The notes: generated by a model from the letters alone, not told the origin. Positions 4,989 through 29,403 are shown, counted from the first letter of the stretch. The stretch: 32,000 nucleotides of DNA from Salinirarus marinus (GCF_030734185.1 NZ_CP132292.1:2776271-2808270); one strand, 5' to 3'. Program-made: numbers and translations.

Positions 4989-5003
4989 CGTCCCGACGAC
5001 GTC

Positions 5004-5117
5004 TCACTCCGTCTTCGGCGTCCCGTCGAAGTGATACTCCGCGGAATCGTCCTGTGGCTCGTAGCCGAGCAGTTCCTTCGCGCGGTCGATGGAGTAGTAC
5101 TTGCGTTCGTTGTCGGA
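5004..5117. repeat. attL: duplicated 3' end of the epimerase gene (non-functional fragment)
   Basis: Identical to 18860-18973 except 5053 T versus 18909 C. On the minus strand it encodes the last 37 codons plus stop of the epimerase, with no upstream gene body. Confidence 0.9.
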
Positions 5118-5233
5118 AGATTACGCGACGGCGAAGCCCTCGCTTGCCGTGCAACTCGCTACGCGACTCGCCCGCCGCCGTCGACGATTTCGCGGGTTCG
5201 TGGGTGGACGTCACCCCGTCGGTTCGGAGAACC

Positions 5234-6274
5234 ATGAACACCCGAACCACTGACGCCCCGACCGAACGGGGACCGAGACTCGAACCGCTCGAACCAGCCA
5301 AAGCGAAATCACTGTATCTCAAGTCGCGGCGGGACGAACTGGCCGCCCGCTCACTGGAGCTACATGAGAAACACGTCGGGTCATTTGTCGACTTCTGTGA
5401 CCGCGAAGGTATCGACAACATGAACGGCGTATCTGCCAGAACAGTTCACGAATATCGGCTTGAGATAGCAGAACGGCTGTCTCAATCGACGCTCAGTATC
5501 TATCTCTCGACTGTTCGGCAGTTCGTCGCATTCTGTGAGAGCATTGACGCCGTCGCCCCGAACACTGCGGAACGAATTGTCCTTCCCGACCGAAACCGTA
5601 ACGCCCGCTCCGAGACGTTAGACGCCGACGACGCGACGGCGATACTGTCTCATCTCCGCAAATACTACTACGCGAGTCGGACGCACGCATTGATGGCGCT
5701 TCTGTGGCACACGGGAATACGGACGGGGACGGTTCACAGTCTCGACGTGAGCGATTACGACGCCGAACGGGACCGTCTAAGAATCCGCCACCGTCCCGAG
5801 ACGGATACCCCGCTCAAGAACGGCGAGAACGGGAATCGCTATATTGCACTGTCGGGAGACGTTTCGGACGTTCTCGACGATTACATCTCGGAGTGTCGCC
5901 AGGAAGTGACCGACGAGAATGGGCGTGAACCCCTCTTTACGACGAAACAAGGGCGGGCGACGAAGAACACTATTCGACGGAACGTCTACGCCGCTACTCG
6001 CCCCTGTGCTACAGGACAGGGGTGCCCACACAACAAGAACCCCGACGAGTGCGAGGCCGCAGAACGGACGAACGCCGCCAGTCTGTGCCCGTCGACTGTG
6101 TCGGGTCATCCCGTCCGTCGCGGAGCAATCACCCACCATCTACGCCAAGACGTTCCAGAAAAGGTCGTCTCTGATAGGATGAACGTCAGTCAAGACGTCC
6201 TCGAAGAATTTTACGACCGTCGAACCGAGGACGAGAAAGCGGAGCAACGTCGCCAATTCATCAAGAACGTCTAA
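5234..6274 (+). CDS. int: tyrosine recombinase / phage-type integrase
   Basis: Start at MNTRTTD; the longer ORF from 4889 reads through attL. SAM-like N-domain. Catalytic-type motifs LLWHTGIRTGT (Arg), GHPVRRGAITH (HxxR) and the C-terminal LEEFYD (Tyr). Confidence 0.9.
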   Translation: MNTRTTDAPTERGPRLEPLEPAKAKSLYLKSRRDELAARSLELHEKHVGSFVDFCDREGIDNMNGVSARTVHEYRLEIAERLSQSTLSIYLSTVRQFVAFCESIDAVAPNTAERIVLPDRNRNARSETLDADDATAILSHLRKYYYASRTHALMALLWHTGIRTGTVHSLDVSDYDAERDRLRIRHRPETDTPLKNGENGNRYIALSGDVSDVLDDYISECRQEVTDENGREPLFTTKQGRATKNTIRRNVYAATRPCATGQGCPHNKNPDECEAAERTNAASLCPSTVSGHPVRRGAITHHLRQDVPEKVVSDRMNVSQDVLEEFYDRRTEDEKAEQRRQFIKNV

Positions 6275-6374
6275 TTCGGATTACATCCCTATCAAATTTT
6301 ATTCATATCACATATCGTATCATGGAACGGGGGTATTTTTAACCACCCGTACATATCACCTCAACGTAGTCCAC

Positions 6375-6613
6375 GTCGGAACCCCACTCTACCCAGGGAT
6401 TCTCGGCAAGGGCTACATGGATAGACCCATCCATGACCAACTCCAACTCCTCCCGCAACGAACAGGAGGAAGAAAGTCAGAACGCTTCCACTCTGAGGGG
6501 ATTGCAGACCCTCAAGTTGGTCCTTGAGACGATATTGACGGCCTTGCGGCTACTCAGAGTGTTGTAACAGGTGGTGGTTACCGACCGTCTCGGTCGGAAC
6601 CCCACTCTACCCA
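6375..6613. repeat. pair of perfect 21-nt direct repeats (6375-6395 and 6593-6613)
   Basis: GTCGGAACCCCACTCTACCCA occurs twice, 218 bp apart, bracketing a 44-codon ORF. Confidence 0.8.
6433..6567 (+). CDS. possible 44-aa small protein (below the ORF-track cutoff)
   Basis: ATG 6433 to TAA 6565-6567 gives MTNSNSSRNEQEEESQNASTLRGLQTLKLVLETILTALRLLRVL: a polar N-half and an amphipathic or hydrophobic C-half. No other support. Confidence 0.3.
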   Translation: MTNSNSSRNEQEEESQNASTLRGLQTLKLVLETILTALRLLRVL

Positions 6614-6783
6614 TATAGGTGTAGTACAATGTACCCCATTAACCTTTGCACTAAATGTGAGTTTTCAATCTTTCTGTAAAATCCCGTTCCTTAGGCCTTC
6701 TCACTGTCATATTGAATGGAAATCATGTGGATTTCTCTGTATTCATCACGATTTCTTGAACGCTTTTCTCGGAAGTTGTCCCC

Positions 6784-7296
6784 CGTCCACAGTCGGGACA
6801 GTCGGATACACGTCCGCGCTATCTCGCTGTGAGATTGACGTAACGGGGATTCACTGGTATTCGATCTTCGGATTGCTAACCGAAATTGGTCAAACCAGGG
6901 GACAAGAGACTAACCCCTTCTTGCCTACGAATCCGCCTTTGCCACAGTAATGACGGGGTGCATACTGTATGCGTAACAGTAATTATAATTGAAGAATCCA
7001 TCCCCCTCGACTGGTAGCAACGGCGTCGTTGACGCCATTCTCGTCAAGGCGATCCAGATTCATCATGGCCATTTGGAAGGCCGTCCACTCGTCCACAGTT
7101 GGGACAGTTGTTCCCACTTCCGCGCTAATCACTGTGAGATTGTCTTGTGAGGGATTCTACGGTATTCGAGATACACACGGTGGATACCACTTAGTTTCGG
7201 TTCGAGTGTGTGCAAGGGGGCCTTACACCACTTTCTCAATCACTGCGGGCCTATCCTCTCGTCCATAGCGGGACAGTCAGATACACCTTCGCGCCT
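6784..7296. repeat. dispersed ~80-bp repeat family (copies 6784-6864, 7090-7169, partial 7260-7296)
   Basis: Shared core is CGTCCACAGTYGGGACAGTYG...TCCGCGCTA..., continued in the two full copies by CTGTGAGATTG...GGGATTC...GGTATTCGA. It explains the shared STVGTV..TSAL peptides in ORFs 6657..6950 and 7029..7268. Confidence 0.75.
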
Positions 7297-7780
7297 TCTA
7301 TTTGGTCATTTTCTATCAAAACATGGATAGAAAGGGGGCGAAATAGGCAGTGAAATTAGTTTCGGGATTGTGATAGGTGGGATTGAATCACCGTTACGTC
7401 GTGCGATTAGCCAAATCGTCTTTCTATCGGTGTAGTACCATACACCGAGATATTATCTCTTACTTCACTCTGTGGACCCACGGGGATTGACCTTCGAGGA
7501 CGGATTGACTTTCACGTATTAGTACAATCTTGGCTGGATTCAACTGGGGTGATTGACTGAATCAGTCTTTTCTCTTAGCCACCATATAGTCGCGCCAATC
7601 TCTCGGGGATACCTCAATAGTAGATCGACTGGGAGGGAAAGAGACGGTGGTCGACGGCGTGTCTCGTCGCCCCGATACCCTCACCGCAACACACGGGTAT
7701 CGTGACGCCGTCGCCCCGCACGTCGCCACACACCGCAGTCACGGTGGGGGGATAGACAATTGAGTCAATCAGCTACGGGA

Positions 7781-7835
7781 CTTAACCAACAACAAACACA
7801 GGAACGCTACACGTTGGTTAAGACCGAGAAAAAAA
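7781..7835 (-). terminator. oligo-T plus hairpin terminator for the minus-strand gene 7845..8108
   Basis: On the minus strand a T7 run (7829-7835) lies 10 nt after the stop. It is followed by a perfect 10-bp inverted repeat, CTTAACCAAC/GTTGGTTAAG (7781-7790 / 7813-7822). Confidence 0.5.
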
Positions 7836-7844
7836 GAGAGTTGC

Positions 7845-8108
7845 TTACGATTCGAGAACTTTGTGGGCGCGGATACGGGACTTCTGGCCCTCAAGCCAGT
7901 CGCGGGGGAACAAGTACCGTTTCTCGCCGTCAGTGAGGAGCGCACGCCCGTCGGGGGTGATTTGACTGATTTTCAGTTGGCCGAGAGACGACGTTTCGAT
8001 CTTCTGGCCTTCCTCGAACGGCCCCCAGTAGTCGTCAGGCATCGGTTCGAGCTGTTCTGCGCCGAGTCCGACCCTTTCGAGCAGGTCGGTGATGTCATTT
8101 TCAGACAT
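7845..8108 (-). CDS. hypothetical acidic protein (87 aa)
   Basis: ATG-initiated ORF with acidic composition and a terminator-like signal downstream. No recognisable motif. Confidence 0.55.
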   Translation of the reverse strand: MSENDITDLLERVGLGAEQLEPMPDDYWGPFEEGQKIETSSLGQLKISQITPDGRALLTDGEKRYLFPRDWLEGQKSRIRAHKVLES

Positions 8109-8507
8109 TGCACTCTCACGTAGGGGACGGTATTACTTCATTCTTTAATTTTCAAAGATATGAAATAATGTCTAACCGAATAGACACCCTGTACCCCCTG
8201 AACCCGCCCCCGTGAAGATTAGCTCAAGGTTGGACGACTATGTCAGTGGGTGGAGGGATTCCCTCTCCCGCCAAAGAAGGGAAATAGACTCGACGGTATC
8301 CCCACCCCGTCGAAAATCTGTGAGGGAGAAATTTCCGAGGGGGCAGATCGGGTCAGAAATTTTTTGGCGAGATACCAGAGGTTTCGCGGCTTCAAAGGGG
8401 CGCGGAAGTTGGATTCGCCGTCACGCGATACATGACAGGCGATTAACCTCCGCGCAAATACGGGGCGGATTTCAGACTGTTGATTAGGAATAGTCAATCA
8501 CCCATAA

Positions 8508-8518
8508 TTTTATTTAAA
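8508..8518 (+). promoter_or_regulatory. TATA-box-like element for a leaderless plus-strand operon
   Basis: TTTATTTAAA is centred about 28 nt upstream of ATG 8541, the spacing expected for haloarchaeal leaderless mRNAs. The same TATTTAAAG string recurs at 17329 and 17661. Confidence 0.5.
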
Positions 8519-8540
8519 GAAAGAATTACCATACTGCCAT

Positions 8541-8774
8541 ATGGTCGTTGCCGAATACGTCTGGTTGGTTGGTTCACCCATTTCCCTACTTCTATTGGGA
8601 TTTCTCGGATGTTGTTGCCAGCAACAACAACAGCAACAGCAGATCGTGACCGCCGATAACGACGATCCGAAACGCGTTTGTCCCGAATGTGGGATGGAAA
8701 ACCCTACAGACGCGGATTACTGTGGGGACTGTGGATTCTCGTTCTCCTCGGGCGGAGGAAATGCCGATGAGTGA
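8541..8774 (+). CDS. small membrane protein with a poly-Gln tract and a C-terminal zinc ribbon
   Basis: N-terminal hydrophobic helix (WLVGSPISLLLLGFLGCCC), then Q8, then CPECGxxNxxxxxYCGDCG (CxxC...CxxC). Confidence 0.7.
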   Translation: MVVAEYVWLVGSPISLLLLGFLGCCCQQQQQQQQIVTADNDDPKRVCPECGMENPTDADYCGDCGFSFSSGGGNADE

Positions 8775-9216
8775 GGAAACCGAACTGACCCTTGATGATG
8801 TTGATCAACGGAAAGCCAGTGAGCTGAAAGAATACCACTTAGAGAAAATCAGAAAAGAAGCTGAGAGTACAAATGACCCAGGCCCGCTCTATCTACGAGG
8901 CAATCCGAGGATTAGAGGTGGTGCTGTTGTCGGGCTTCTGGTCTTTGGAACTGCGTTCGGCGCATTAATCATGCCAACATCACCCGAAGCAGCGGCTATG
9001 TTCGGAGTGATGGTGAGCGGCGTAGGATTGTTTACGATTACCCAGTGGGGAGTAGCTACAAGGCGTGCCCTACGGGATGCTGAGACAGGTAATCAGCAAC
9101 AACAGCAGGGGAAGCCTTCATCCAAATCCAAGCAGATATGCTCAAACTGTGGATGGAAAAATCCGAAAGCAAACAATTATTGTCACGATTGCGGTGCTGA
9201 ACTGGATTCAGAATAG
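8761..9216 (+). CDS. membrane protein with two TM helices, a poly-Gln tract and a C-terminal zinc ribbon
   Basis: Start MPMSEE overlaps the upstream stop. Two hydrophobic segments, then QQQQQ, then CSNCGWKNPKANNYCHDCG. Paralogous design to the previous gene. Confidence 0.7.
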   Translation: MPMSEETELTLDDVDQRKASELKEYHLEKIRKEAESTNDPGPLYLRGNPRIRGGAVVGLLVFGTAFGALIMPTSPEAAAMFGVMVSGVGLFTITQWGVATRRALRDAETGNQQQQQGKPSSKSKQICSNCGWKNPKANNYCHDCGAELDSE

Positions 9217-9579
9217 ATGAGCAACGTTCTCGACAGGTTGTTTCGAGTATCCCAAATCTTCCGCTCGTATCCCTTTTGTCACTCTCGACCCGACCGCTCG
9301 TTTTGCTACCGAGGGCGTCATTTCGGACTGTGCGCTCGATGCACGACGATGTATCTCGGTGGGTTGCTGACGATGATCTCATTTCCGATGTGGCGACCCG
9401 TCTCCCCGCTCGTTTTGATTGCGGTTAGTGGTCTGCTACTGGTTCCAGGAGGAGTTGACGGAACCACACAAATGTTTGGCGACCGAGAAAGTACGAACAC
9501 CTTGCGAGCGATTACTGGCTTTCTATTGGGTGGTGGGGTCGTTACGACCGTCTATGCTGTCGTTTCGATGCTCTTGTAA
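9217..9579 (+). CDS. DUF2085-like membrane protein
   Basis: CHSRPDRSFCYRGRHFGLCARCTTMYLGG matches the CHxxxxRSF...CARCTGxYxG signature I recall for DUF2085. Hydrophobic segments follow. The ATG directly abuts the upstream stop. Confidence 0.65.
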   Translation: MSNVLDRLFRVSQIFRSYPFCHSRPDRSFCYRGRHFGLCARCTTMYLGGLLTMISFPMWRPVSPLVLIAVSGLLLVPGGVDGTTQMFGDRESTNTLRAITGFLLGGGVVTTVYAVVSMLL

Positions 9580-9836
9580 CATCGGACGCGGAGGTGGTTG
9601 ACCGTCACACAGTTCGTGACGGAGAATCCAATTTCCGCGCCACCCGAGAGACAGCCTCTACCCGCCGAATAACCGAATGCAACTGTAAGGGAGAATTACC
9701 GACAGTCCCACCGACTCCGAGTAAGTCGGGGCAGGAGGATGAGACGGAAAATAGCGACGGTACGGGGTGTTAGTACACGGAAGTCGAATCCGTTATCGCG
9801 GGACCGAGATAGCGGGGGTGCGTCCGTGTTCGAGGG

Positions 9837-10376
9837 CTATGGGACGAACAGGGAATTAGAACGAGAAATGTCGAGTGCAGTGATCCCGCCGTTACTGTTC
9901 GTCGATGCCGCCGAAACATCGACGACCGCGCCACGGTCCCCGCCGTCGACGTGGATGCCGTCTGATTCGATTTCCAGCGAGTGACCGTGGGCCTGTACGA
10001 TGGCGTTACCGTTCGGCTTCAATCGTACCTCCGCGTCACTGTCGGGGACGCCAATGACTCGCTCACCTGGGTCGTACTCGGGGGGTGAATCCGATTCACT
10101 GTACAACACTCCGATGACGACGGGAACACCGTCTCGACGCCGAATCATGAGGACCCTATCACCAACTGACGGGATATGGGCGTCTCCGACCATCTGAGTC
10201 GTCACAATTGCCGCCGAATCCTGTCCCGTCGAATCGGCGCGGACCTGGACGTGGTGACGCACGTCGTCGCCCTGTTGGTGAGCCTTCACAGAGACGACGG
10301 TTCCGCGCTCCGCGAAGGCCATTTCACGGTTGAACCGACCGACACTTTGGGCGTGGCCGTGGGGATTTCGGGTCAT
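9837..10376 (-). CDS. gpV / gp45 / gp5-like baseplate spike (OB-fold) protein
   Basis: GTVVSV...HHVQVR, then PSVGDRVLMIRRRDGVPVVIGVLYS, then a beta-rich tail. This resembles the N-terminal OB domain pattern of P2 gpV / Mu gp45 / VgrG-gp5. ATGA overlap with the upstream gene. Assigned from memory only. Confidence 0.55.
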   Translation of the reverse strand: MTRNPHGHAQSVGRFNREMAFAERGTVVSVKAHQQGDDVRHHVQVRADSTGQDSAAIVTTQMVGDAHIPSVGDRVLMIRRRDGVPVVIGVLYSESDSPPEYDPGERVIGVPDSDAEVRLKPNGNAIVQAHGHSLEIESDGIHVDGGDRGAVVDVSAASTNSNGGITALDISRSNSLFVP

Positions 10377-11695
10377 GCATCCTCCCAGACTACATCGCTA
10401 ATCTTGATTTCGGACTCATCGACGTGGAAATTCACGTCTAATTTCGTGTTCGGAATTTCGTACTCGGGGTCGGTGCGGTGGACCACTGAATTGATCGACC
10501 ACGTAAGCGGTTCGGCGTCTACGTCGATGACAGCTTGGTCGGCGGGCAATGCGCGGATTCGGTCGTAGGGACCAAGTTGTGGGGCGAGAACGCTATACAT
10601 CCATCCGCCGCCATCCGAATCGCTCAATAGGTCTGCAAGATAGCTCCTTGCCGCCGCTTTAACCTCTCGCTCGGAAGCCGAATCGACCTGTATTTGCCGA
10701 CTCGCATACTCGCCGCCTGCCCGTTGTACCAAGTCGTCGTACACTGCCCGAACGCGGACGTAACGTGAAGGAGCGGATTCGGCAGTCCATTGACTGTCTA
10801 AGGGTTGGGCCGAACGGGACTTTTTGGCCGCTCCGACGGCGACGACAGAGTTTCGCAACTGGGTTTGGTATAAGGCTCTGTTCTTGAGGAGTGCCACGTC
10901 GCCGTCTCCCGTCGCGTCATATTCACTCCCAATCTCGGGCAGGGAGTTGATGTGCGCGACGACGATTTCCAGCGTCTCGAAGTCCTCGCTTGGGCGAAGC
11001 CAGTACCGATAGGGTCCGCCTCGGTTACGAATCCACCGTAACACGTCGAGAAGGGTCGACCGATTCCGAGTAAATTCGCGGCGACCAAGAGAACCCATCT
11101 CGGGATCGATACTCTGTACGTCGCTGGCCGCATTCAGACTGGTATATGACTGATTTTCTGCGGCTGATTCGACGCCGACGACGTTTACCTCTGGGAACAC
11201 TCCCGCGTCCTCTAATTCGGACGCTATGTACTCCAGAGGAATTTCTGGGGACGGATTGGTGAACCGACGACTCGCGGGGATTTCTTCAAGCACGTCGGCT
11301 ACGTCGTTGACGGTGAACTGTACCGAATCCTCTCCGCCGCCGATTCCGCCAACCCATCCCCGAAAGACGGGCGTGAAGTCACCATCCTTGTTCAACGGGG
11401 AGCGAAGGGCGATTTCAACGGGGATTAGACCCGCACGGGAGGTAACGTCGACGAGTTTTCCGTACTCGTGACCGTCAACCTGCCACCGAGTTTTCACCGT
11501 CGCATACCCCTTTATTGAGGGGTTTTTCGTCTTACGGAGTTCGAGGTTTACCCCGAGTGAGGGAATGCGGGTTCGGGATTTGCCGATGAGGATTCGATCT
11601 GGTGCTGGATTCGGGGGGTCGAAGTCGGGAATATTCTCCGAGTCGCCACCACTCCCCTCGGCAGAGAACGCGGAAGTGTTGTCTGATACGCTCAT
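10373..11695 (-). CDS. gpD / gp27 / VgrG-like tail hub protein
   Basis: The block VFRGWVGGIGGGEDSVQFTVNDVADVLEEIPASRRFTNPSPEIPLEYIASELEDAGV resembles the conserved F.G.V...R.F.n.s..ei block of gpD/gp27-type hubs. It sits between the TMP-like and gpV-like genes, as in Mu and P2. Needs an HMM search. Confidence 0.5.
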   Translation of the reverse strand: MSVSDNTSAFSAEGSGGDSENIPDFDPPNPAPDRILIGKSRTRIPSLGVNLELRKTKNPSIKGYATVKTRWQVDGHEYGKLVDVTSRAGLIPVEIALRSPLNKDGDFTPVFRGWVGGIGGGEDSVQFTVNDVADVLEEIPASRRFTNPSPEIPLEYIASELEDAGVFPEVNVVGVESAAENQSYTSLNAASDVQSIDPEMGSLGRREFTRNRSTLLDVLRWIRNRGGPYRYWLRPSEDFETLEIVVAHINSLPEIGSEYDATGDGDVALLKNRALYQTQLRNSVVAVGAAKKSRSAQPLDSQWTAESAPSRYVRVRAVYDDLVQRAGGEYASRQIQVDSASEREVKAAARSYLADLLSDSDGGGWMYSVLAPQLGPYDRIRALPADQAVIDVDAEPLTWSINSVVHRTDPEYEIPNTKLDVNFHVDESEIKISDVVWEDA

Positions 11696-12156
11696 GAATC
11701 GAGGAGAGATTGGCCGAGCGACTGGTTCGTATCCTCGCGTTGCATTAATTGAAACGTGTATAGCGGCTCCGTTACGGGGGTTCCCTGAAATGTGTAGTTG
11801 CCTCGCTGTTCCTGGTCGTTTCTATCCCATTTGAACTGGTCAAATACTGCCATTCCTGTATAACCGTCCGTTATAATTTGAACTTTCTCTGTGGAGCGAA
11901 CCAACTCAGTCAGCTCCTTCAGTTCTGGGCGGAACAGGTACCCTTCCATCGTGAAGGTTACACCCATATCTCCCGTCTGCGAGACGTAGGTGCGACCCCC
12001 AGTGCCATGGGCAACATCGGTATTGAGCGGAAGTGTTCCGCCGACGCGAGTCACTACGGGTGGTTGTACGACTTCATCCTGATCTGGATCTCGGATAGTT
12101 GGACGGACTTCCCCCAACGTCGCAAGTTCAGTAGCAGTTGGTTCAGATGTAGACAT
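11692..12156 (-). CDS. hypothetical protein; distal-tail / tube-initiator-like by position only
   Basis: 154 aa. TAATG overlap with the TMP-like gene and ATGA overlap with the hub-like gene. Appears beta-rich. No motif recognised. Confidence 0.4.
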   Translation of the reverse strand: MSTSEPTATELATLGEVRPTIRDPDQDEVVQPPVVTRVGGTLPLNTDVAHGTGGRTYVSQTGDMGVTFTMEGYLFRPELKELTELVRSTEKVQIITDGYTGMAVFDQFKWDRNDQEQRGNYTFQGTPVTEPLYTFQLMQREDTNQSLGQSLLDS

Positions 12157-13739
12157 TATATCCCCGAAGCAAATTCACTGTCACGGCGCGTTCCTTCCAT
12201 GTAACTCAGCGTCTCGGTAATTCGAGTGGCATCTTCGCGGGAGTTGGCGTTGATGTTGTAGTTCTTGTAGACGACGTTGCCTCCAGCAACACCGCCACCA
12301 CCACTGAATCCGCTCATCGAACCGAAGCCACCAGTGTTCGCACTCACTCCGTTAAATTCGCGGAGGGCGTCGGTGGCCGAACGGATTCCTCCTTCGAGGG
12401 AGACGAACTGGGAGGTAAGCCATCCAATCCCCGCCGCGATACCGAGGGTGAGAACCGAATAGAGCGTCATCAAGGCCGCACTCAACGCATACGACTGGAG
12501 GGTAGCCATCAACTCGGCGGCAGTCATTCGTTGGAATGCCGCCGCGTTCATCTGAACTGCCCCGAACAGACTCAACAGTCCACCCTGAAGCGAGTTGTTG
12601 ACGACAGTGTACATTGCCGATACGGAGAGAAGGGTTAGGAGGACGCCAGCGAGAGCGCCCATAACTTCGAGGCCGTATGGGAGAACGTTCAGGATTTGCC
12701 CCAACCCACCGAACATCATCATAATCCCCCGAGTCGCGGCGAGGAATCCAAGGGATAACTCGTAGATGATCGGAAGGAATCGTCCAAGGTCGGTGACGAT
12801 TGCGGCGAGGAGCGGCAACGTATCGGCCAAAACGCTACCAAGGAGTGCAATCATGTTCACGTCGGGGAATCTCTCTCCCAACATCGTGAACAGTGGCACG
12901 GCCATCTCACCGAAGGCGACGACATCCGCCAGTACGGGAGCGGTGTTCCGTGAGAGGAAGTGGGTCAATGCAGTGAAATCGTCGGTCAACGACCGAAGAA
13001 CGCCTGCATTGCGACCCAAATCACGGACGAGGAAATTCAGGTCACGGAAGGCTTCTTCGACGACGGGGACGAAGGATTCGGCTATCGGGCGGAATGCCTG
13101 TACAAACGTATTTCCGAGGCGGGTTATCCGCTGTTGTAAGCGTCTCACGGATAATCCGTCGCCTGTCATCGCCATTCCTAACAGGCCCAGTCCCCCGATG
13201 GCCGCAAGGCCACCTGCGGCGGCAAGGGCCGCTCCCGCCAATGCACCGAGGCCCGCAATGGCGGCGGGGAGCGCACCGATGAAGGTCCCCATCATGGGAA
13301 TTAACGCCGCGAGAATCTTGAAGAAGTCACCCATGACGAACTGTAAATCGAGGAACTGGTCGGTGAGAGAATCACGTTCACGGACTCGAATCCCTGGGTC
13401 GTGATAGATAGGGAGTCGGATGGGTTGTCCGCCGCTGGTCATGGCCTCACCCGCAGACGATGCAGTAGACGAAGCAGTGGAGGCCGCGCTACTCACCGTT
13501 CCCGAAACGTCGGAATCAGTATCCACGTCAACGTCGACGCCACTGTCGATGGTATCCATCGTCGCGGCGACCGCCTGAAGCTCCGCTAACGTTTCAGAGA
13601 CGCCGTCGACACCAACTTCGATGTCGAAGACGGCTTCCTCCAAGGAGCCGATTCGATACAGTTGCAGTTCAAGTTCGGTGAGAACTGCCGAAAATTCATC
13701 CTCAACAGACGCTATAAGGTTTAGTTCTTCCGTAGGCAT
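12156..13739 (-). CDS. tape-measure-like protein with multiple hydrophobic/glycine-zipper segments
   Basis: 527 aa. Acidic coiled-coil-like N-terminus, a Ser/Thr-rich linker, then many Ala/Gly/Leu hydrophobic stretches (GALPAAIAGLGALAGAALAAAGGLAAIGGLGLLGMAM...) as in TP901-type tail tape-measure cores. Gly-rich C-terminus. Confidence 0.55.
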   Translation of the reverse strand: MPTEELNLIASVEDEFSAVLTELELQLYRIGSLEEAVFDIEVGVDGVSETLAELQAVAATMDTIDSGVDVDVDTDSDVSGTVSSAASTASSTASSAGEAMTSGGQPIRLPIYHDPGIRVRERDSLTDQFLDLQFVMGDFFKILAALIPMMGTFIGALPAAIAGLGALAGAALAAAGGLAAIGGLGLLGMAMTGDGLSVRRLQQRITRLGNTFVQAFRPIAESFVPVVEEAFRDLNFLVRDLGRNAGVLRSLTDDFTALTHFLSRNTAPVLADVVAFGEMAVPLFTMLGERFPDVNMIALLGSVLADTLPLLAAIVTDLGRFLPIIYELSLGFLAATRGIMMMFGGLGQILNVLPYGLEVMGALAGVLLTLLSVSAMYTVVNNSLQGGLLSLFGAVQMNAAAFQRMTAAELMATLQSYALSAALMTLYSVLTLGIAAGIGWLTSQFVSLEGGIRSATDALREFNGVSANTGGFGSMSGFSGGGGVAGGNVVYKNYNINANSREDATRITETLSYMEGTRRDSEFASGI

Positions 13740-13761
13740 AATTTAGATTCGATAAACTCGT

Positions 13762-13953
13762 TCAACTTCGCTGATCTTCGACCGTTACTTCGTCGTCGGT
13801 TTCTTCGGGAGGCCATACCTGCCGTCCGCCGTCCCCATCATCCCAGACTCTCCCGTCGTCACTGATGGTGAAGCGGTCTTGCTCGTAGAACCGTTCGGGC
13901 ATTTCGGGGAATGGCCGCCCCAACTCCTCGGGAATTGGACTGTCGTCGCTCAT
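13762..13953 (-). CDS. hypothetical acidic protein (63 aa)
   Basis: ATG at 13953 overlaps the upstream stop (ATGA). MSDDSPIPEELGRPFPEM... is acidic. The ORF-track version from a TTG at 14031 is probably too long. Confidence 0.45.
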   Translation of the reverse strand: MSDDSPIPEELGRPFPEMPERFYEQDRFTISDDGRVWDDGDGGRQVWPPEETDDEVTVEDQRS

Positions 13954-14237
13954 GATCTGTCTGAATGCTCCCAACACTTGTCGCCGCCGTCCTCCGTATC
14001 TGCCGCACGGGGAGGTTTGCCACAGAACCAACCACTCTCAAGCTCCGCGCCACAGCGACCGTAGTGGTCGGCTTCCTCTTTGCTCGGAAGCCCGATTCTC
14101 GGATCGCGGCGGAGTTGACTCAGCGATTTCTCGTCTTCGAGGTAGAGGGGATGGTTCCGATACGGCTCTAAATCCCCGTATTCTTCCTGCCAATTCGTAT
14201 ACGGTTTGCCGACGCGTTCGACTCGTTCTCGGGGCAT
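13950..14237 (-). CDS. hypothetical protein with a Cys/His cluster (possible zinc-binding)
   Basis: 95 aa. HYGRCGAELESGWFCGKPP...DKCWEH. TAATG overlap with the upstream gene. Confidence 0.5.
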   Translation of the reverse strand: MPRERVERVGKPYTNWQEEYGDLEPYRNHPLYLEDEKSLSQLRRDPRIGLPSKEEADHYGRCGAELESGWFCGKPPRAADTEDGGDKCWEHSDRS

Positions 14238-14503
14238 TATTTCGAGGGTAGATCGTATGTCTCACCCGATTCGTACTCCGTTTCGTCGTCTTCGGACTGT
14301 GAGGAGGACTCACCATCTGCCGATAGCGAATAAGTCTCACCGTGCTTATATTTCGGCATCTCGTCGTCGGCGGTGTCGGTATCGAAGCCCGCGTCCTCTG
14401 CGAATCGGACAAGCTCCTCAACGCCGTCATGCAGTTGTGCAATTTGGTCGACGGTCAAATCAGACACGTACTCCGCGAGCGAAGTTTCATTCCAGTCGGT
14501 CAT
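14237..14503 (-). CDS. hypothetical, very acidic protein (88 aa)
   Basis: ATG-initiated operon member. The C-terminal half is rich in D/E/S/T. Confidence 0.5.
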   Translation of the reverse strand: MTDWNETSLAEYVSDLTVDQIAQLHDGVEELVRFAEDAGFDTDTADDEMPKYKHGETYSLSADGESSSQSEDDETEYESGETYDLPSK

Positions 14504-14810
14504 TGTCGATTAGGTAAGCGCGAAATTGATTCTGGGTCGGTTCAGTCGTGGGGGTGACGTGGAGTTTGGTCCTCGGCCACGGTTCGATTTCGAGATACTC
14601 GTTTTCGCCACTCGGAAGGGTCGCTGTGGCGATTTCGTGAGCGTCCTCGAAGGTCGCATCTTCGACGCGGGTGGCCGAAATCGAAATGGACACTTCCGCG
14701 TCCAAATCGTTACAGAATTGAAGGCGGTTAGGCGGGGGAGAATCCGCATCGAAGGTGAAACTGTGCGGATTAGTGTCGCGGATTTCAACTTCTGTGATCG
14801 TCTCACTCAT
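14487..14810 (-). CDS. hypothetical protein (107 aa), apparently beta-rich
   Basis: Start MSETITEV at 14810 overlaps the upstream stop by 8 nt (ATGAGTGA). The ORF-track start at 14837 is less likely. Confidence 0.5.
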   Translation of the reverse strand: MSETITEVEIRDTNPHSFTFDADSPPPNRLQFCNDLDAEVSISISATRVEDATFEDAHEIATATLPSGENEYLEIEPWPRTKLHVTPTTEPTQNQFRAYLIDNDRLE

Positions 14811-15324
14811 TCGCCACCTCAACGGAGAGTGAAACATCGGTGTAGTCGGGTTCTTCTTTTATTGCACTCTCCTTCAGATACTTCGGCGGGGGATTCTCGT
14901 CTAAATGCTTATTGTAAGCTCGCCACTCCCGCCATGCTTCTCGCAGTTTTTTCGCATCCTTCAGTTCGGCTTCGGGTTCGGCGTCTTCGTACAGTTCCCG
15001 AAGATCGGTTGCGTATTCGAGGGCCAGGAAAGTCAGAGCATCCTCCCGATTCGCCCCGCTCATTCCGATATGATTTGCCGCATCCGCCGCCCGACTCCAC
15101 GTCGCTTTCGAGCAACGGACTCGTTGGGGGCGTCCCGATTCATCTAACCGCTCTTGGACTTCATTTCGCTCCCATTCCTCTCCTGCCATCTCACCGTAGT
15201 GGTGGATGAGGAGGATAAGCGGCGTGTCGACGCGTTTCGCATCCCCTTTACCGAGATTCGTGTTATCGAGTTTCGTCTTCGCTTTGCTACCGATTCGGAT
15301 TCGTTTAATTTCTTCCGCGTACAT
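14803..15324 (-). CDS. hypothetical charged protein (173 aa)
   Basis: ATG lies 8 nt downstream of the Rep stop. Likely helical, Lys/Glu-rich. No motif recognised. Confidence 0.5.
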   Translation of the reverse strand: MYAEEIKRIRIGSKAKTKLDNTNLGKGDAKRVDTPLILLIHHYGEMAGEEWERNEVQERLDESGRPQRVRCSKATWSRAADAANHIGMSGANREDALTFLALEYATDLRELYEDAEPEAELKDAKKLREAWREWRAYNKHLDENPPPKYLKESAIKEEPDYTDVSLSVEVANE

Positions 15325-15334
15325 TGTGTTGTAA

Positions 15335-16525
15335 TTAATTGTTGTCGTCTTCTGATTGTTTGAGTTTCAATACTTCATCGTCGGAGGGAAAGCCCCGTGA
15401 CGTTGCGAACCAGTTCCGCGACGAAACCCAGGCCCCGACGGCGCGGTCGATGTGCCACGGTTCCGTATCGCCTGCAAGGGCGAAGTGCGGTAACTGCGAC
15501 CCAAGATAGACACACCCTGCCGTCGGGGGAATATCTCGGAGTGAATTGACTACGCCTACCTCTCCGTAGGTATCCGTCGCCCGAGGCGGGTCGTGTTCGA
15601 CGGTCACTGTCCCTCTCTCAACGTCGTGTGACTCCCAGGAGGCCCGTGGGGTTCTCTCTACGAACTTTGCGACGGCAGGGCGAAACCATTCGGAATCAAC
15701 TACGTCGTGGGGATCGTCGACCCAGAGGTACAGGTGACAGTGGGGGGTGGCCCACTGTCTCGTGGCCGAGATAATCCGCGCCCATTCCACGTCGAACCCC
15801 CGTTTCTGGGAGAGGGCGTATCGGATTGAATCCATGACGGCGGTCATGTTCTGAAACAGGTCTTCCCCCTGTTGATATGGCGTAACCACCCTCCCCGTCT
15901 CGGGGTCGACGGGGGACTGTCTCAAGCTGATCATGACCGTCGTTACCCCCGTCATGTCGATTTTGAAGTAGGCATCGGCGTCTCGCAACTTTGCGTACCG
16001 TTGCCGAGCTTGCCGTAGTTTTGACGTTCTGTACGGCCCGTCGTCGCCGTCGTCGTCCCCGCCGTCATCACTGTCATTCTCCCCGACGCCGACGCCAAGG
16101 TCGGGGTCATTTGCCGTGACGAGACGGGTGTAGACGTTCCTCGCTGTTCCTCGCATGATGGGGCGCGGATGGTCGCATACGTCGACGGTATGTTCGCCTT
16201 TACCCTCGGGGTCGTGATGGTCAATCGACCACTCCTCGCACCCGCAGGTGACGAGAGGGTCGGGGAGTCGGGAGCAATCCACCGTCGGGGGTGCGACCAG
16301 TCCTTCGTCGTATCGACTGGGTGGGACTCTGTGGTCGGAGGGACTTCGGGGTTGTTTGTCTTTTTCCCCAGTCGCACATATAGTCTCGCCGTCCCGTTCG
16401 TGTTCGGTCCACTCCTCCCACTCCTCCCTTTGAATGAAACGGACGGGGGGATCACTTGGCTCCCGTTCGTGATAGGGCGATGGGGATAATACGTCGCCGT
16501 GGAAGTGGCGGGGGATAGACGCCAT
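15335..16525 (-). CDS. rep: HUH-superfamily rolling-circle replication initiator (Rep)-like protein
   Basis: Ordered motifs: TTVMISLRQ (motif I-like), ATPHCHLYLWV (HUH as H-C-H followed by hydrophobics), and a downstream GCVYLGSQLPH (candidate catalytic Tyr). N-terminal Cys/His cluster and an Asp/Gly acidic insert. Confidence 0.55.
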   Translation of the reverse strand: MASIPRHFHGDVLSPSPYHEREPSDPPVRFIQREEWEEWTEHERDGETICATGEKDKQPRSPSDHRVPPSRYDEGLVAPPTVDCSRLPDPLVTCGCEEWSIDHHDPEGKGEHTVDVCDHPRPIMRGTARNVYTRLVTANDPDLGVGVGENDSDDGGDDDGDDGPYRTSKLRQARQRYAKLRDADAYFKIDMTGVTTVMISLRQSPVDPETGRVVTPYQQGEDLFQNMTAVMDSIRYALSQKRGFDVEWARIISATRQWATPHCHLYLWVDDPHDVVDSEWFRPAVAKFVERTPRASWESHDVERGTVTVEHDPPRATDTYGEVGVVNSLRDIPPTAGCVYLGSQLPHFALAGDTEPWHIDRAVGAWVSSRNWFATSRGFPSDDEVLKLKQSEDDNN

Positions 16526-16708
16526 CGACTATCCCTCCGACCACCTCCGCTGAAATAGCAAATATCCGAAAGGTTTATTAACCCGACAGTAGAATAGTCT
16601 ACCGTCGGTGAACGATACTCCGTCGCCGTCGCTACTGTTTGCGAACTTGCCCATAATCGTAGTTCCTTCGGGGTAACGGTCCCTACACCGTCACCCGCTC
16701 TTTTTTTA

Positions 16709-16870
16709 TCAGTTCTTCGAGATGAACGCGTCGTTTTCCTCGATTAGCCGTTCAATCGTCACCCGATAGGGAACGTCTTCTGTCCCAAACAGGGCGACAC
16801 TGGCGTCGTCGAGAAGCTGTTTGTCTTCGTTACGAACAGTAATGGTGCAGTGGTTTTCTGATGCAGGCAT
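16709..16870 (-). CDS. ribbon-helix-helix (CopG-like) small DNA-binding protein (53 aa, below the ORF-track cutoff)
   Basis: Hand translation: MPASENHCTITVRNEDKQLLDDASVALFGTEDVPYRVTIERLIEENDAFISKN. A beta-strand (TITV) followed by two helices is typical of RHH. Located just upstream of rep in the same orientation. Confidence 0.5.
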   Translation of the reverse strand: MPASENHCTITVRNEDKQLLDDASVALFGTEDVPYRVTIERLIEENDAFISKN

Positions 16871-16933
16871 GGTGCTGGTATGAAAGGTGGGGGAGTTTCA
16901 CCCCCGAACGCTATACAATTGCTACTGACTTTT

Positions 16934-17111
16934 GCGTTTGCGTAGCAAACGCACGCAGGCTGTTCGTTGCGTAGCGCCGAACAGACTCCGATAGAGAGAT
17001 AGATTGGGGGCAAAGCCGCGTCCCCCGTACTGAAACCGCGCATCGACTCCGAAACCCCGAGTCGGACATCACGTACCGACTCGGAAACGCCGACTCGAAC
17101 GCGGTGAGTCG
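16934..17111. promoter_or_regulatory. candidate double-strand origin: two hairpins plus iterons
   Basis: Hairpin 1: GCGTTTGC-GTA-GCAAACGC (16934-16952). Hairpin 2: CTGTTCG-TTGCGTAGCGC-CGAACAG (16960-16984). Both expose TTGCGTAGC. Two 21-bp repeats CGACTCSGAAACSCCGASTCG lie at 17044-17064 and 17077-17097, with an extra GAGTCG at 17106-17111. Confidence 0.45.
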
Positions 17112-17254
17112 GCATCCCCGATGGGAGTAGAAAGGGGGTGGCTCCCGAAAAGGGGTATGGGCAAGTTCTGGGGGCTTGAATCTGCGACCCCCGCACTAAA
17201 CGGCCCGTTCCCCACTTCCCCTCAATACTAAAGACTACCCAACTAAAATCGGGC

Positions 17255-17810
17255 TTTCTGAACAGGTAATTTGACAGTCTTACGGTTCGAGACGGTTCGT
17301 ATCGGCAGTTCCGTGAATCTCCCGAGCCTATTTAAAGGTAATCTGACGCAATTACAGTACCTCTCACTATACGTGTAGGGCGCGAAAAATCCGCCATACT
17401 CAATCAGTAGATCGGGCTTATCAGTCCTCGAAGCCGTCCAGAATCGACGTTTTCGTGGTTTCACAATGGCTTATAAAGGGTGAAGTAGGATTGATTGTCC
17501 CAAGGCAGGGACAGTGATTGACTTCACCGTCCATCTCCGTCGTCGTCCTTCTCTCAATGCTCCCTATCTGGCGAACAAAACACGGTCTTCCGAACGGTTA
17601 ATTTCACTCTCTCAAGCCGCGAGAGAAGTAAAATCGCCTGTTCCGTGATTTTCAGGGGCCTATTTAAAGGTATTTTGCCGCAATTACGTTCCTCTCAATG
17701 CTCCTTATCCCCCCATCATAATTTCGGGATTCGCCAAATCAGAACAGTCGATTTCTGACGGCTAACCGCCTCGAAACCGTCGAATGTTGATTTTAAATGG
17801 GGTGAAAAAG
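17255..17810. repeat. two diverged ~215-235-bp repeat copies spaced ~330 bp apart, each containing a TATTTAAAG box; no convincing ORF
   Basis: Best-conserved core is GTTCCGTGAWTYTC...GCCTATTTAAAGGTAWTYTG.CGCAATTAC..YCCTCTCA, at 17308-17367 and 17640-17697. Weaker similarity extends about 50 nt upstream and 110 nt downstream. Confidence 0.7.
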
Positions 17811-18322
17811 GGTATTGGGCGAACGTGTTGTTATCAGTCCTATTTTTTGACTCTCTAATCCCTTTCGTGAGAACGGTCATAGACGGTTCCTACGAGACTG
17901 AAGCAGTTGGAGGACCAAAACCACTTGGATAAGCGCGAAGGTTCAGATTATTGCTCATAGACCAAACGTGAGAGATTGTGAAGCAACTGACCGTCAAGGC
18001 ACAGACGGGGAATCCAACATCACCCCACCACGAGAAGCTGTGCGGCGCGGGACTGTGAGGTGAATCTACTATCTACGATAGGTAATCCAACATCACGGCA
18101 AGATAGACTAAGTGTGTATCTTCCGTGGGATACACCTTCTATTGAACGGAGCGATTGCGTATCGTTCCACCGTCCTTCCCCTGTTCGGACGGTCCTCACT
18201 ATGTAGGTATATAACTCAACAACAAATAGACTTTTGATTGTGTCTCGGGATACCCCTCTCGCGGTAGTACTGGTATTCCAAACGGGGAAACACCCAAATG
18301 TCAGGTCAAAATAGCGTTCTTC

Positions 18323-18604
18323 ATGCTCAGCCCAGAATTTTGGTTGGTGATTTCTCTCCTGTGGTTCGTCGTTGCGATCCTCACCGCGAAAGACGCGCGA
18401 AAGCGAGGTATGAATCAGCTGTTCTGGCTCTTAGTGGCGATTATTTTCGGAATATTTGGTGTCGTAATCTACCTTCTCGTCAGAAAACCTCACCCCGACC
18501 GACGAACAACCTCGGATAGCAATCGGGACGAATTTACTACTAAATCATGGGATGAAATTGACGACGAACCAGCGAGTATGTCGTCTACTTCCGAGAAAGA
18601 GTAA
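18323..18604 (+). CDS. small membrane protein, PLD-nuclease N-terminal (PLDc_N)-like
   Basis: Two TM helices (FWLVISLLWFVVAIL and LFWLLVAIIFGIFGVVIYLLV) with a basic loop between them, then an acidic tail. The pattern resembles the PLDc_N small-protein family. Confidence 0.6.
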   Translation: MLSPEFWLVISLLWFVVAILTAKDARKRGMNQLFWLLVAIIFGIFGVVIYLLVRKPHPDRRTTSDSNRDEFTTKSWDEIDDEPASMSSTSEKE

Positions 18605-18859
18605 CTCGGAGGCAGTTGACTGTGGCGAGCTTGCCACAGCGGGGTGTCGTCCGCGCCAATTCCAATATGCTCACCCCAAGAATGATAGTGGTTCCCAATG
18701 AACTACGCCCGAACCGACGGATGGCGAACCATCACCGACACAGCGTGTATGGCTTCAAAATCAGGGGTTCGAGAGAGTCCCCTGTTTCGGGTGGAACTAC
18801 CCCGTCACTTACCAGTGGCGTGACAATCCTGAAAAATCAGAAAACCGCAAGAGGGAAGG

Positions 18860-18973
18860 TCACTCCGTCTTCGGCGTCCCGTCGAAGTGATACTCCGCGG
18901 AATCGTCCCGTGGCTCGTAGCCGAGCAGTTCCTTCGCGCGGTCGATGGAGTAGTACTTGCGTTCGTTGTCGGA
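18860..18973. repeat. attR: 114-bp repeat forming the genuine 3' end of the epimerase gene
   Basis: Direct repeat of 5004-5117. Starts exactly at the epimerase stop codon (TCA on the plus strand at 18860-18862). Confidence 0.9.
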
Positions 18974-19645
18974 GATGCCGTAGACGATCTCATAGCCGTA
19001 GTCGGCGCGCACGCAGCGGTCGAACAGGTGGGCGCAATCGCGCCACGAGAGCCACATCGCCTGTCCGCGTTCGTAGTTCCGCGGCGGGTGGTCTTTCGTG
19101 AGGTTGCCGATGCGGACACAGACGACGCTCAGTCCGTGTTCGTCGTGGTAATACCGCCCCAGGACCTCGCCCGACGCCTTGCTCACGCCGTAGAGGTTGC
19201 TCGGCCGGGGCAGTTCCGTTCCGTCGAGGCGGTAGTCGTCGTCCGCTCGGTACATCTCGGGCGTTCGCTCGTCCGTCTCGTAGGCCCCGACGGCGTGGTT
19301 CGAGGAGGCGAAGACGAACTTCTCGACGCCCGCCTCGACGGCCGCGTCCAGTACGACCTGCGTGCCGTCGATGTTGTTCCGGAGGACCGAGTCCCACGGC
19401 GCTTCCGGCCGTGGGTCGCCGGCGAGGTGCACGACTACACCGACGTCGGCCATCGCTTCCCGTACCGCCTCCGCGTCGGTCACGTCGGCGACGTACACGT
19501 CCTCCCGGTCGACGCCGTCGGGGACGCTCTCCGCGGGAAGCGGCTCCCGGTCGAGGAGCCGCCAGTCGTGGTCCGTCGCGAGTCCCGAGAGGATGGCCTG
19601 TCCGACGCGCCCGCCCGCGCCCGTCAGCAGAACCGGGTCGTCCAT
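18860..19645 (-). CDS. NAD-dependent epimerase/dehydratase family protein
   Basis: MDDPVLLTGAGGRVGQAI Rossmann GxxGxxG motif. SDR-type YxxxK (YGVSKASGE). 261 aa, acidic. Confidence 0.9.
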   Translation of the reverse strand: MDDPVLLTGAGGRVGQAILSGLATDHDWRLLDREPLPAESVPDGVDREDVYVADVTDAEAVREAMADVGVVVHLAGDPRPEAPWDSVLRNNIDGTQVVLDAAVEAGVEKFVFASSNHAVGAYETDERTPEMYRADDDYRLDGTELPRPSNLYGVSKASGEVLGRYYHDEHGLSVVCVRIGNLTKDHPPRNYERGQAMWLSWRDCAHLFDRCVRADYGYEIVYGISDNERKYYSIDRAKELLGYEPRDDSAEYHFDGTPKTE

Positions 19646-29215: not shown

Positions 29216-29289
29216 GCCGCCTTAGCTCAGACTGGGAGAGCACTCGACTGAAGATCGAGCTGTCCCCGGTTCAAATCCGGGAGGCGGCA
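29216..29289 (+). tRNA. tRNA-Phe (anticodon GAA)
   Basis: Acceptor GCCGCCT/AGGCGGC. D arm GCTC-AGACTGGGA-GAGC. Anticodon stem CTCGA/TCGAG with loop CTGAAGA. T arm CCCGG-TTCAAAT-CCGGG. Discriminator A, followed by a T5 run. Confidence 0.9.
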
Positions 29290-29329
29290 TTTTTCTGCGA
29301 ACGAAGTGAGCAGTGAAAGTGCTCGTGAA

Positions 29330-29403
29330 CGGATTTGAACGAGACCGGGAACGCGCAGCGAAGCGAGCATTTCCGGGTGTAGTTCACAATCCGGGAGGCG
29401 GCA
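29330..29403. repeat. degenerate copy of the tRNA-Phe 3' half preceded by an inverted T-loop segment
   Basis: CGGATTTGAAC (29330-29340, inverted T-loop), an imperfect inner hairpin CCGGGAA...TTCCGGG, then GTTCACAATCCGGGAGGCGGCA (29382-29403), which has 1 mismatch to the tRNA 3' end. Confidence 0.8.

Follow-up and report, generated by a model that had tools for sequence, protein, structure and literature searches.

The 32,000-nt stretch of Salinirarus marinus DNA analyzed here (GCF_030734185.1 NZ_CP132292.1:2776271-2808270; hereafter the window, with positions counted from its first letter) holds a 13.9-kb element, at 5004-18973, integrated in a haloarchaeal chromosome. Proteins identical to those of the window are recorded under the names Salinirarus marinus and Haloplanus sp. 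GCM10025708. Within the element, ten minus-strand genes form an operon at 9837-16525 that joins a replication initiator (Rep) to proteins resembling the tip of a viral tail. Judged from sequence, the best explanation is that this is an integrative, plasmid-derived element that has captured the central nucleus of a contractile tail. The ten open reading frames (ORFs), all intact, are as follows, in the order in which they are read.

15335-16525, minus strand: Rep, 396 aa
14803-15324, minus strand: p173, 173 aa
14487-14810, minus strand: p107, 107 aa, or 116 aa (p116) from an upstream ATG
14237-14503, minus strand: p88, 88 aa
13950-14237, minus strand: p95, 95 aa
13762-13953, minus strand: p63, 63 aa, or 89 aa from a TTG start
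12156-13739, minus strand: p527, 527 aa, predicted tape-measure protein (TMP)
11692-12156, minus strand: p154, 154 aa, predicted tube-fold protein
10373-11695, minus strand: p440, 440 aa, predicted baseplate hub
9837-10376, minus strand: p179, 179 aa, predicted central spike

From Rep to p179, the junctions measure +10, −8, −17, −1, −4, +22, −1, −4, and −4 nt. They follow a pattern of ATGA, TAATG, and short overlaps, so that the genes appear to be translationally coupled, and an ATGA overlap joins the p179 and hub genes. The initial annotation had described ten coupled genes in just this arrangement, and its coordinates and junctions hold. Public gene models start too late for three of them, leaving 273 aa for Rep, 374 aa for p440, and 120 aa for p154; the longer ATG starts (396, 440, and 154 aa, respectively) fit the alignments of their homologs.

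The boundaries of the element are sharp. They are set by the following features.

5004-5117: attL, the left copy of a 114-nt direct repeat; the GC drop starts at the same point
18860-18973: attR, the right copy, overlapping the 3′ end of the host epimerase gene
18860-19645, minus strand: host NAD-dependent epimerase (Pfam Epimerase, E 2.7e-25)
~5228-6274, plus strand: tyrosine integrase beside attL (Pfam Phage_integrase, E 3.6e-11, plus an N-terminal SAM-like domain)

The two repeats are 99% identical and spaced 13,856 nt apart, and the GC content is 50-58% inside the element compared with 65-71% in the flanking DNA. A tyrosine recombinase, flanking direct repeats, and atypical base composition together mark an integrative mobile element, in agreement with the outline first drawn for it. 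The attachment site is the duplicated 3′ end of the epimerase gene and not a tRNA gene. The integrase is 53% identical to that of L013, one of several related loci (numbered with the prefix L) described below, which carries both a hub and a spike gene.

Direct searches of the ten operon proteins against Pfam, PHROG, NCBIfam, and PADLOC were nearly empty, and word-indexed homolog searches with the hub, as a single sequence or as a profile, returned only itself and one relative. An exhaustive HMMER search with p116, p154, p440, and p179 concatenated yielded 342 relatives; among the matches listed, 97 sequences belong to the hub family, 38 to the spike family, 13 to the p154 family, and 2 to the p116 family. 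The family alignments had no match in GTDB species representatives, IMG/VR, or a first metagenome scan, and no hub or spike homolog was present among PLSDB plasmids. The productive search for related loci was that of the spike alignment, on metagenomes only.

Four of the operon proteins can be assigned to a viral tail. For p440, an AlphaFold2 model based on 59 homologs reached a pLDDT of 87 and a pTM of 0.86, and Foldseek gave 49 PDB hits at E ≤ 1e-3, among which every named protein is a baseplate hub or a hub-spike protein of the VgrG type. They include the Anabaena contractile injection system (CIS; 2.4e-13), PVC, AFP, VgrG1, Mu gp44 (1wru and 9ki1_G), T4 gp27 (1k28_D), P1, the Haloferax HFTV1 tail, and pyocin R2, with TM-scores on the target of up to 0.67. 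The hub profile had no sequence-level PDB match. The model thus identifies p440 as a predicted baseplate hub with the gp27/Mu gp44/P2 gpD/VgrG N-terminal fold of tandem tube-like β-barrels, presumably a pseudo-hexameric trimer; a gpD/gp27-like hub is what the initial annotation had proposed. The position of its gene agrees, since the order TMP, p154, p440, p179 is that of HATV-2 gp23-26 and of the viral loci L006, L007, L010, and L016.

The adjacent p179 had likewise been proposed as a gpV/gp5-like spike, and its family profile, built from 38 sequences, bears this out. It matches VgrG (9rce_F, E 4.9e-6) and a cyanophage central spike (8kea_D, 1.7e-4), as well as the T4 gp5 C terminus (3a1m) and Mu gp45 (9ki1_V). 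The alignment to VgrG covers residues 418-517, which correspond to the OB fold and the start of the β-helix. The match to Pfam Phage_base_V spans positions 2-75 of 75 and lies below threshold (E 0.029; 15.2 vs. 23.8 bits), and tblastn finds the HATV-2 “baseplate assembly protein V” at E 2e-5. Sequence comparison therefore makes p179 a putative central spike of the gpV/T4 gp5/Mu gp45 type, with an OB fold and a short β-helix, and a distant member of Phage_base_V.

For p154, the AlphaFold2 model (13 homologs) is of moderate confidence, with a pLDDT of 70. Foldseek aligns it to tube-fold chains of baseplate and tail-tube structures at E 1e-4 to 5e-3, including the phiCD508 needle (1e-4), the pyocin R2 baseplate, AlgoCIS, the Mu baseplate (9ki1_0), and an A-1(L) “baseplate-initiators” entry; the protein identity of the matched chains was taken from entry titles and chain lengths. 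The resemblance came from the fold search: the p154 profile had no sequence-level PDB match, and hhalign against virus tube proteins gave E 0.064 only. The tube-fold matches fit the fixed position of this family, which in virus modules always lies between the TMP and the hub and whose L007 member is 57% identical to p154. We therefore take p154 to be a modeled tube-fold initiator or hub adaptor, in the position of Mu gp43 and siphovirus Dit. The 527-aa protein, called tape-measure-like at the outset, matches the PHROG TMP families phrog_58 (E 6e-4) and phrog_305, finds the HATV-2 “tail tape measure protein” by tblastn at E 1e-10, and is 46% identical to the L007 TMP, which sits between the chaperone and the initiator. 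With a coiled-coil N terminus, approximately four clusters of hydrophobic segments, and a Gly-rich C terminus, p527 is by sequence a tail TMP, with a predicted role in setting tail length.

The usual home of these four genes is the tail module of a virus. In the isolated haloarchaeal myovirus HATV-2 (Haloarcula tailed virus 2; Soleiviridae, Eilatmyovirus), the genes run from the sheath (gp19) through the tube and a chaperone expressed by a −1 frameshift to the tape measure, and then through a 161-aa protein, the baseplate hub, and protein V to the gp25-like wedge and baseplate J (gp28). The same collinear contractile-tail module is found in eight metagenomic loci (L006, L007, L010, L011, L014, L016, L018, and L019), among which L007 is closest to the window, with identities of 46, 57, 32, and 43% for p527, p154, p440, and p179, respectively. 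In L007, a 73-aa hydrophobic ORF (4974-5195) is inserted on the opposite strand between hub and spike. The window block corresponds to HATV-2 gp23-gp26, and its gene order is that of Mu gp42-gp45. Since complete virus modules share this order, the block can be read as the inner nucleus of a contractile-tail baseplate, and the tail genes of the window appear to derive from a contractile tail of the Mu/HATV-2 gene order.

The upstream half of the operon is of a different kind. The HUH motifs TTVMISL, PHCHLYL, and YLGSQL occur in order in Rep and are conserved in five sequences, those of the window and four relatives. PF07232, which has been treated as an HUH Rep family with ORF1 of the alphapleolipovirus HHPV1 as an example (PMC13107129), is matched by three of the five aligned Rep proteins, with a best E of 2.8e-27. 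The window Rep alone has no Pfam match at E ≤ 1, but two PF07232-matching relatives, P0005 and the Rep of L009, are 47 and 25% identical to it. A weak tblastn match connects it to the replication protein of plasmid pNB101, and its profile had no sequence-level PDB match. It also carries a Cys-rich N-terminal extension of ∼170 aa. By its motifs, Rep would thus belong to the rolling-circle HUH superfamily, as had been recognized from the start, and by its relatives to the PF07232 lineage. The pGRB1-type nick motif TCTCGGC occurs 13 times against 9.7 expected, not above chance.

The initial annotation saw in the whole operon a mirror of the distal half of a tail module. This view stands for the last four genes, perhaps five, and fails for p173, p107, p88, and p95 (13950-15324, minus strand), whose homologs follow Rep in other contigs. 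In L008, Rep is followed by p173-like, p88-like, p95-like, and p116-like genes, and in L002 by p173-like and p88-like genes. Because they recur beside Rep homologs, these four proteins belong to a plasmid-type backbone and are not tail-derived. None of them matched Pfam, PHROG, NCBIfam, PADLOC, or the PDB, and Pfam searches of their homologs also found nothing. The possibility that p107 is a tube protein was considered and rejected, since hhalign shows no similarity to tube proteins; its family holds a single homolog, too few to model. An eleventh conserved gene, orf53 (16709-16870, minus strand, 53 aa), lies 183 nt upstream of Rep. Its homologs (49-51 aa) are found upstream of Rep in L002 and L003 and also in L009 and L020. 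Pfam found nothing in it, and its sequence pattern alone indicates that it is probably a ribbon-helix-helix copy-control repressor.

The small acidic protein p63 moves with the hub block rather than with Rep. BLAST aligns it weakly with short ORFs that immediately precede the hub genes in L005 (E 6e-4) and L001 (E 1e-3), and its I-G-x-G-G-R-V-W-like motif is also present in L009, L021, and a 54-aa ORF before the TMP of L006. The motif-bearing small acidic ORFs lie at 49-222 in L005, 4509-4745 in L009, 2245-2415 in L021, and 3774-3938 in L006; the statistics are weak, and such a protein stands before the hub in the small elements and before the tape measure in the window and L006. Tentatively, p63 may be a fifth gene of the captured tail block. 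HATV-2 gave no support for p63 as a frameshift extension of a tail chaperone, and its link to the tail block stays a lead at the level of the motif. By sequence, then, only the distal four operon genes, perhaps five, seem to be tail-derived.

No other morphogenetic genes accompany them. Pfam, PHROG, NCBIfam, and PADLOC searches of the element found no capsid, portal, terminase, sheath, or ATPase family. With the ten operon genes and the integrase set aside, no credible ORF in the element exceeds 175 aa, and none combines a suitable size with a family match for an HK97-fold capsid, portal, or large terminase. When the sheath, tube, chaperone, gp25-like, baseplate-J, gpI-like, and fiber proteins of related modules were used as tblastn queries, no vestige was detected in the 32-kb window. 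Nor did any element ORF match a pleolipovirus VP3-like protein, VP4-like spike, or NTPase in PHROG or Pfam. The early statement that capsid, portal, terminase, sheath, and ATPase are missing is therefore correct as far as ORF sizes, family searches, and tblastn reach. Two identities were set aside on these grounds: a complete tailed provirus (Caudoviricetes), which would carry capsid, portal, and large terminase genes, and a pleolipovirus provirus, with which the Rep family is the sole shared gene.

The combination is not unique to the window. At least five other small elements with an integrase and/or Rep carry the hub, some of them also the spike, and none of them other tail genes. The relatives are the following.

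L001, 4.5-kb contig: Rep (64% identical), a 130-aa gene, hub (67% identical)
L005, 1.7-kb contig: p63-like ORF, then hub
L009, 10.4-kb contig: orf53 homolog, PF07232 Rep, spike, a 78-aa gene, hub, integrase
L021, 6-kb contig: integrase, a 56-aa acidic gene, hub, PF07232 Rep
L013, 10.5-kb att-bounded island by the host ELP3 gene in a 141-kb contig: integrase, hub, spike
L020, ∼9-kb low-GC island in the Salarchaeum sp. JOR-1 chromosome (CP042241.1 1330394-1351743): integrase, orf53 homolog, hub

Homologs of the operon proteins are thus found both in full virus modules and in several small headless elements. This outcome matters because the initial annotation had held that tail genes occurring always inside complete proviruses, or a lack of tail folds in the 527-, 440-, and 179-aa proteins, would speak against it; all three received tail assignments. 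In L009, at 3735-6109, the order spike, 78-aa gene, hub is the reverse of that in viruses, with both tail genes intact, so the pair has been kept through rearrangement. In L020, the ∼800 nt after the hub (11350-12142) contain no called gene and, by tblastn, no spike homolog; the spike may have been lost there or be very divergent. The small proteins vary between related elements, which share no common structural candidate beyond the hub.

The hub is also maintained by selection. Between the window and L001, dN/dS is 0.147 for the hub and 0.131 for Rep, with dS near saturation, and these sequence comparisons show purifying selection on the hub since the two copies split. In neighbor-joining trees (no bootstrap), the window hub, together with those of L001, L005, and L009, clusters with the L007 virus lineage, whereas the hub and spike of L013 group with the L010/L011/L016 lineage; the L013 spike, within the hub-spike region at 8640-10483, is 57% identical to the L011 spike. 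The element hubs are 30-35% identical to the nearest virus hubs. Since element hubs and spikes group with at least two virus lineages, the trees suggest at least two independent captures from viruses or a continuing exchange with them.

How might such an element use a tail tip? By itself it can assemble neither a tail nor a particle. In Mu-, P2-, and T4-like viruses, tail assembly is nucleated by the hub trimer with the spike, tape measure, and initiator, and the wedges, tube, and sheath then join. The most economical reading is that the element acts on the assembly line of a co-infecting, Soleiviridae-like myovirus. Two traits expected of a satellite are found together, namely its own integrase, attachment sites, and Rep, and an incomplete, Soleiviridae-type four-gene tail sub-block. 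Because relatives elsewhere keep the same gene combination, the likeliest reading of the element is as a parasite of tailed viruses, one of a type so far undescribed in archaea. In the mechanism we propose, it would reside in the chromosome, excise through its own integrase, and be copied by rolling circle through Rep. When a related, Soleiviridae-like myovirus replicates in the same cell, the element’s hub complex would seed baseplate and tail assembly from the wedge, tube, and sheath proteins of this helper. Tail machinery would thereby be diverted for the element, allowing it to spread in helper particles and/or lowering helper yield. Hijacking for its own spread and interference with the helper are compatible with each other. 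That the element is a satellite-type parasite, seating its own baseplate nucleus in helper tail assembly through a helper step that we infer, is to us nearly an even proposition, although it falls short of one. It nonetheless fares best among the four explanations originally offered, two of which, a decayed remnant and a tailocin, have evidence against them.

Several points weigh against such a satellite. No helper virus was identified in the window or its genome, and no packaging signal, small terminase, or capsid-remodeling gene is recognizable in the element. Heads and tails assemble separately, so that possession of a tail tip does not by itself favor packaging of element DNA. The hub-only relatives L020 and L021 fit interference at least as well as hijacking, and five operon proteins have no assigned fold. 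The family is rare, being unmatched in GTDB species representatives, IMG/VR, and PLSDB. Finally, the appearance of the hub as the conserved core of these elements is partly an effect of ascertainment, since the hub-bearing relatives were found through hub, spike, or p154 searches (L001 through Rep).

The alternative that survives best, although we think it unlikely, is one of pure interference or defense. The diverged hub, with the spike, initiator, and TMP where present, would then be a dominant-negative nucleus that ties up the wedge, tube, and sheath proteins of an incoming myovirus or gives rise to dead tails, and the element would never be packaged; neighboring cells that carry the element would be protected. 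Bacteria are known to use a block of tail assembly as an antiviral strategy. One hub gene would suffice, matching L020 and L021, and at 30-35% identity to the nearest virus hub, an element hub could plausibly still bind without being functional. Repeated capture from different virus lineages would fit an arms race. The element also has no recognizable packaging function. However, a complete, collinear, and co-translated set of TMP, initiator, hub, and spike with conserved termini exceeds what a poison subunit needs, and action so late in infection would not rescue the infected cell. Moreover, no PADLOC defense family was matched, and the literature searched yielded no experimental precedent for a hub acting as a decoy.

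It is harder to view the element as the genome of an autonomous new particle, either a small virus or vesicle with a hub-spike(-TMP) entry device or a minimal tailocin-like puncturing device, and we regard this as improbable. Such a particle could draw on p173, p107, p88, p95, and p63 and on several membrane proteins, none with an assigned fold, and the TMP is strongly hydrophobic. Reps of the PF07232 family are also used by the membrane-vesicle-type alphapleolipoviruses (PMC13107129). However, a tubeless tail tip has nothing through which to conduct DNA, and neither a sheath, a polymerizing tube, nor a wedge was found in the element, nor a capsid, portal, or ATPase. In addition, p107 is unlike tube proteins, the small proteins vary among related elements, which share no structural candidate beyond the hub, and PHROG and Pfam revealed no pleolipovirus-type structural family. 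A tailocin or extracellular contractile injection system (eCIS) was rejected because sheath, tube, and wedge (gp25-like, J-like) genes were not found in the window by tblastn.

A neutral passenger, that is, a functionless fragment of a myovirus tail acquired by illegitimate recombination or left by deletion of a provirus, is very improbable. Its appeal is that the four genes form a contiguous sub-block of the virus module and that haloarchaeal mobile elements are mosaic. Yet all of the ORFs are intact and translationally coupled, no vestiges of neighboring tail genes remain, and the hub is as constrained as Rep, again with dS near saturation. Moreover, at least five further small elements, with different backbones and rearranged orders, carry the hub. 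Together, recurrence and selection argue strongly against a decaying remnant, and a decayed tailed provirus was discarded for the same reasons of intact, selected, and recurrent genes without vestiges. Least probable of all, to the point that we give it little weight, is exaptation outside virions, whether of a hub trimer ring for handling element DNA or of a tail-tip conduit for Rep-linked export of single-stranded DNA during cell contact: the hub does lie directly beside Rep in L001 and L021, and HUH enzymes remain covalently attached to the DNA that they pilot in conjugation, but the element lacks an ATPase and channel components, the spike, initiator, and TMP retained in the window copy are what a tail function predicts, and no precedent supports it.

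The rest of the element is occupied by accessory genes and by stretches poor in ORFs. The accessory genes are as follows.

8541-9579, plus strand: three genes (77, 175, and 120 aa), convergent with the operon
8541-8774, plus strand: 77-aa zinc-ribbon protein
8689-9216, plus strand: 175-aa membrane protein with a zinc ribbon
within 8541-9579, plus strand: 120-aa DUF2085 membrane protein (E 4e-25)
18323-18604, plus strand: 93-aa small membrane protein, PLDc_N-like (Pfam PLDc_N, E 5.4e-5)

Zn_Ribbon_1 and DUF7577 are the Pfam matches of the two zinc-ribbon proteins taken together. These proteins overlap and contain poly-glutamine runs (QQQQQQQQ and QQQQQ) that are unusual for haloarchaeal proteins. 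Two further stretches, at 6300-7800 and 16900-18300, are ORF-poor, of ∼50% GC, and repeat-bearing. A 111-nt segment at 17245-17355 recurs at 17577-17687 with 70% identity. Shorter repeats are 21 nt (exact, positions 6375 and 6593) and 18 nt long (positions 17551 and 17692), and GCTACGCAA is present twice near 16945-16985. Both stretches are candidate origin, packaging, or regulatory DNA; they gave no Rfam match and no conservation with related loci, and no noncoding DNA is conserved between related elements. Outside the element, a second low-GC patch (∼53%) at 29300-31000 directly follows tRNA-Phe (29216-29289) and includes a 289-aa ORF (29641-30510) that is methyltransferase-like by eye. This patch may be another small island or an integration remnant.

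It is useful to set the element beside known systems. HATV-2 has the same four genes in the same order (tape measure, 161-aa protein, hub, protein V), and tblastn pairs p527 with gp23 (E 1e-10) and p179 with gp26 (E 2e-5), whereas p440 is paired weakly with gp25 (5e-5) in a local search. In HATV-2 and in L006, L007, and L016, however, the block lies between sheath-tube-chaperone and gp25-like/J/fiber genes, in HATV-2 within a 63-kb genome with head genes, whereas in the window its neighbors, within an element of 13.9 kb, are those of a Rep plasmid backbone. Mu (gp42 TMP, gp43, gp44 hub, gp45 spike), P2 (gpT, gpD, gpV), and T4 (gp27-gp5) have the same folds, with Mu also sharing the gene order, but identity is ∼10-12%, and the element is without a lysozyme domain and without wedge, sheath, or tube genes. 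The R- and F-type tailocins and eCIS are, like the element, headless tail-derived sets, and the hub model matches pyocin R2, AFP, PVC, AlgoCIS, and the Anabaena CIS. Unlike the element, they always encode a tube, terminator, and wedge or fiber, plus a sheath if contractile (R-type and eCIS); none of these was found here. The alphapleolipovirus (HHPV1 ORF1) and pNB101 Reps are of the same three-motif HUH lineage (PMC13107129), although the window Rep escapes Pfam on its own, has its ∼170-aa Cys-rich N terminus, and is accompanied by no pleolipovirus structural genes.

Satellites offer the closest parallels. P4, PICI, cf-PICI, and PLE are integrative, have their own replication, need helper structural proteins, and often interfere with the helper. 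These systems remodel or encode capsids or redirect packaging, whereas the element carries TMP, hub, and spike instead. In archaea, the SRCEs combine plasmid replication with incomplete virion modules and have been interpreted as satellites of spindle-shaped haloviruses, a status proven for pSSVx (bioRxiv 10.1101/2025.02.15.638363). With pSSVx, pSSVi, and the SRCEs, the element shares a plasmid module (including rolling-circle Reps), an incomplete virion module of the helper lineage, and a hypersaline habitat (bioRxiv 10.1101/2025.02.15.638363). It differs in that they carry the spindle-virus capsid protein and/or AAA+ ATPase on small free circles, whereas its tail-tip genes are those of a head-tailed virus, it has an integrase, it is chromosomal, and its satellite nature is putative. 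In the literature searched, archaeal satellites are those of spindle-shaped viruses only, and no satellite defined by the TMP, hub, and spike of its helper was found. Taken singly, the proteins are new members of families already known. The elements may therefore be the first satellites or antiviral hitchers of head-tailed archaeal viruses, and a class of satellite without a known counterpart in any domain of life, defined by possession of the helper’s baseplate nucleus (a hub with or without spike, initiator, and tape measure), instead of capsid or packaging genes, and hence by control over tail nucleation. We offer this as a plausible claim that is still somewhat short of probable.

If the satellite reading is right, it may be relevant in several ways. 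First, virus parasitism in hypersaline systems would gain a new layer. Second, the elements would constitute a natural experiment on the nucleation of a contractile tail by hub, spike, initiator, and tape measure and on the degree of divergence that co-assembly tolerates. Third, an element of 13.9 kb whose host strain is in culture, and which has relatives in Salarchaeum sp. JOR-1, would provide a compact and testable system. More broadly, our work gives a predicted function to an archaeal baseplate hub family of >90 clusters that has no Pfam model and to its 154-aa initiator family.

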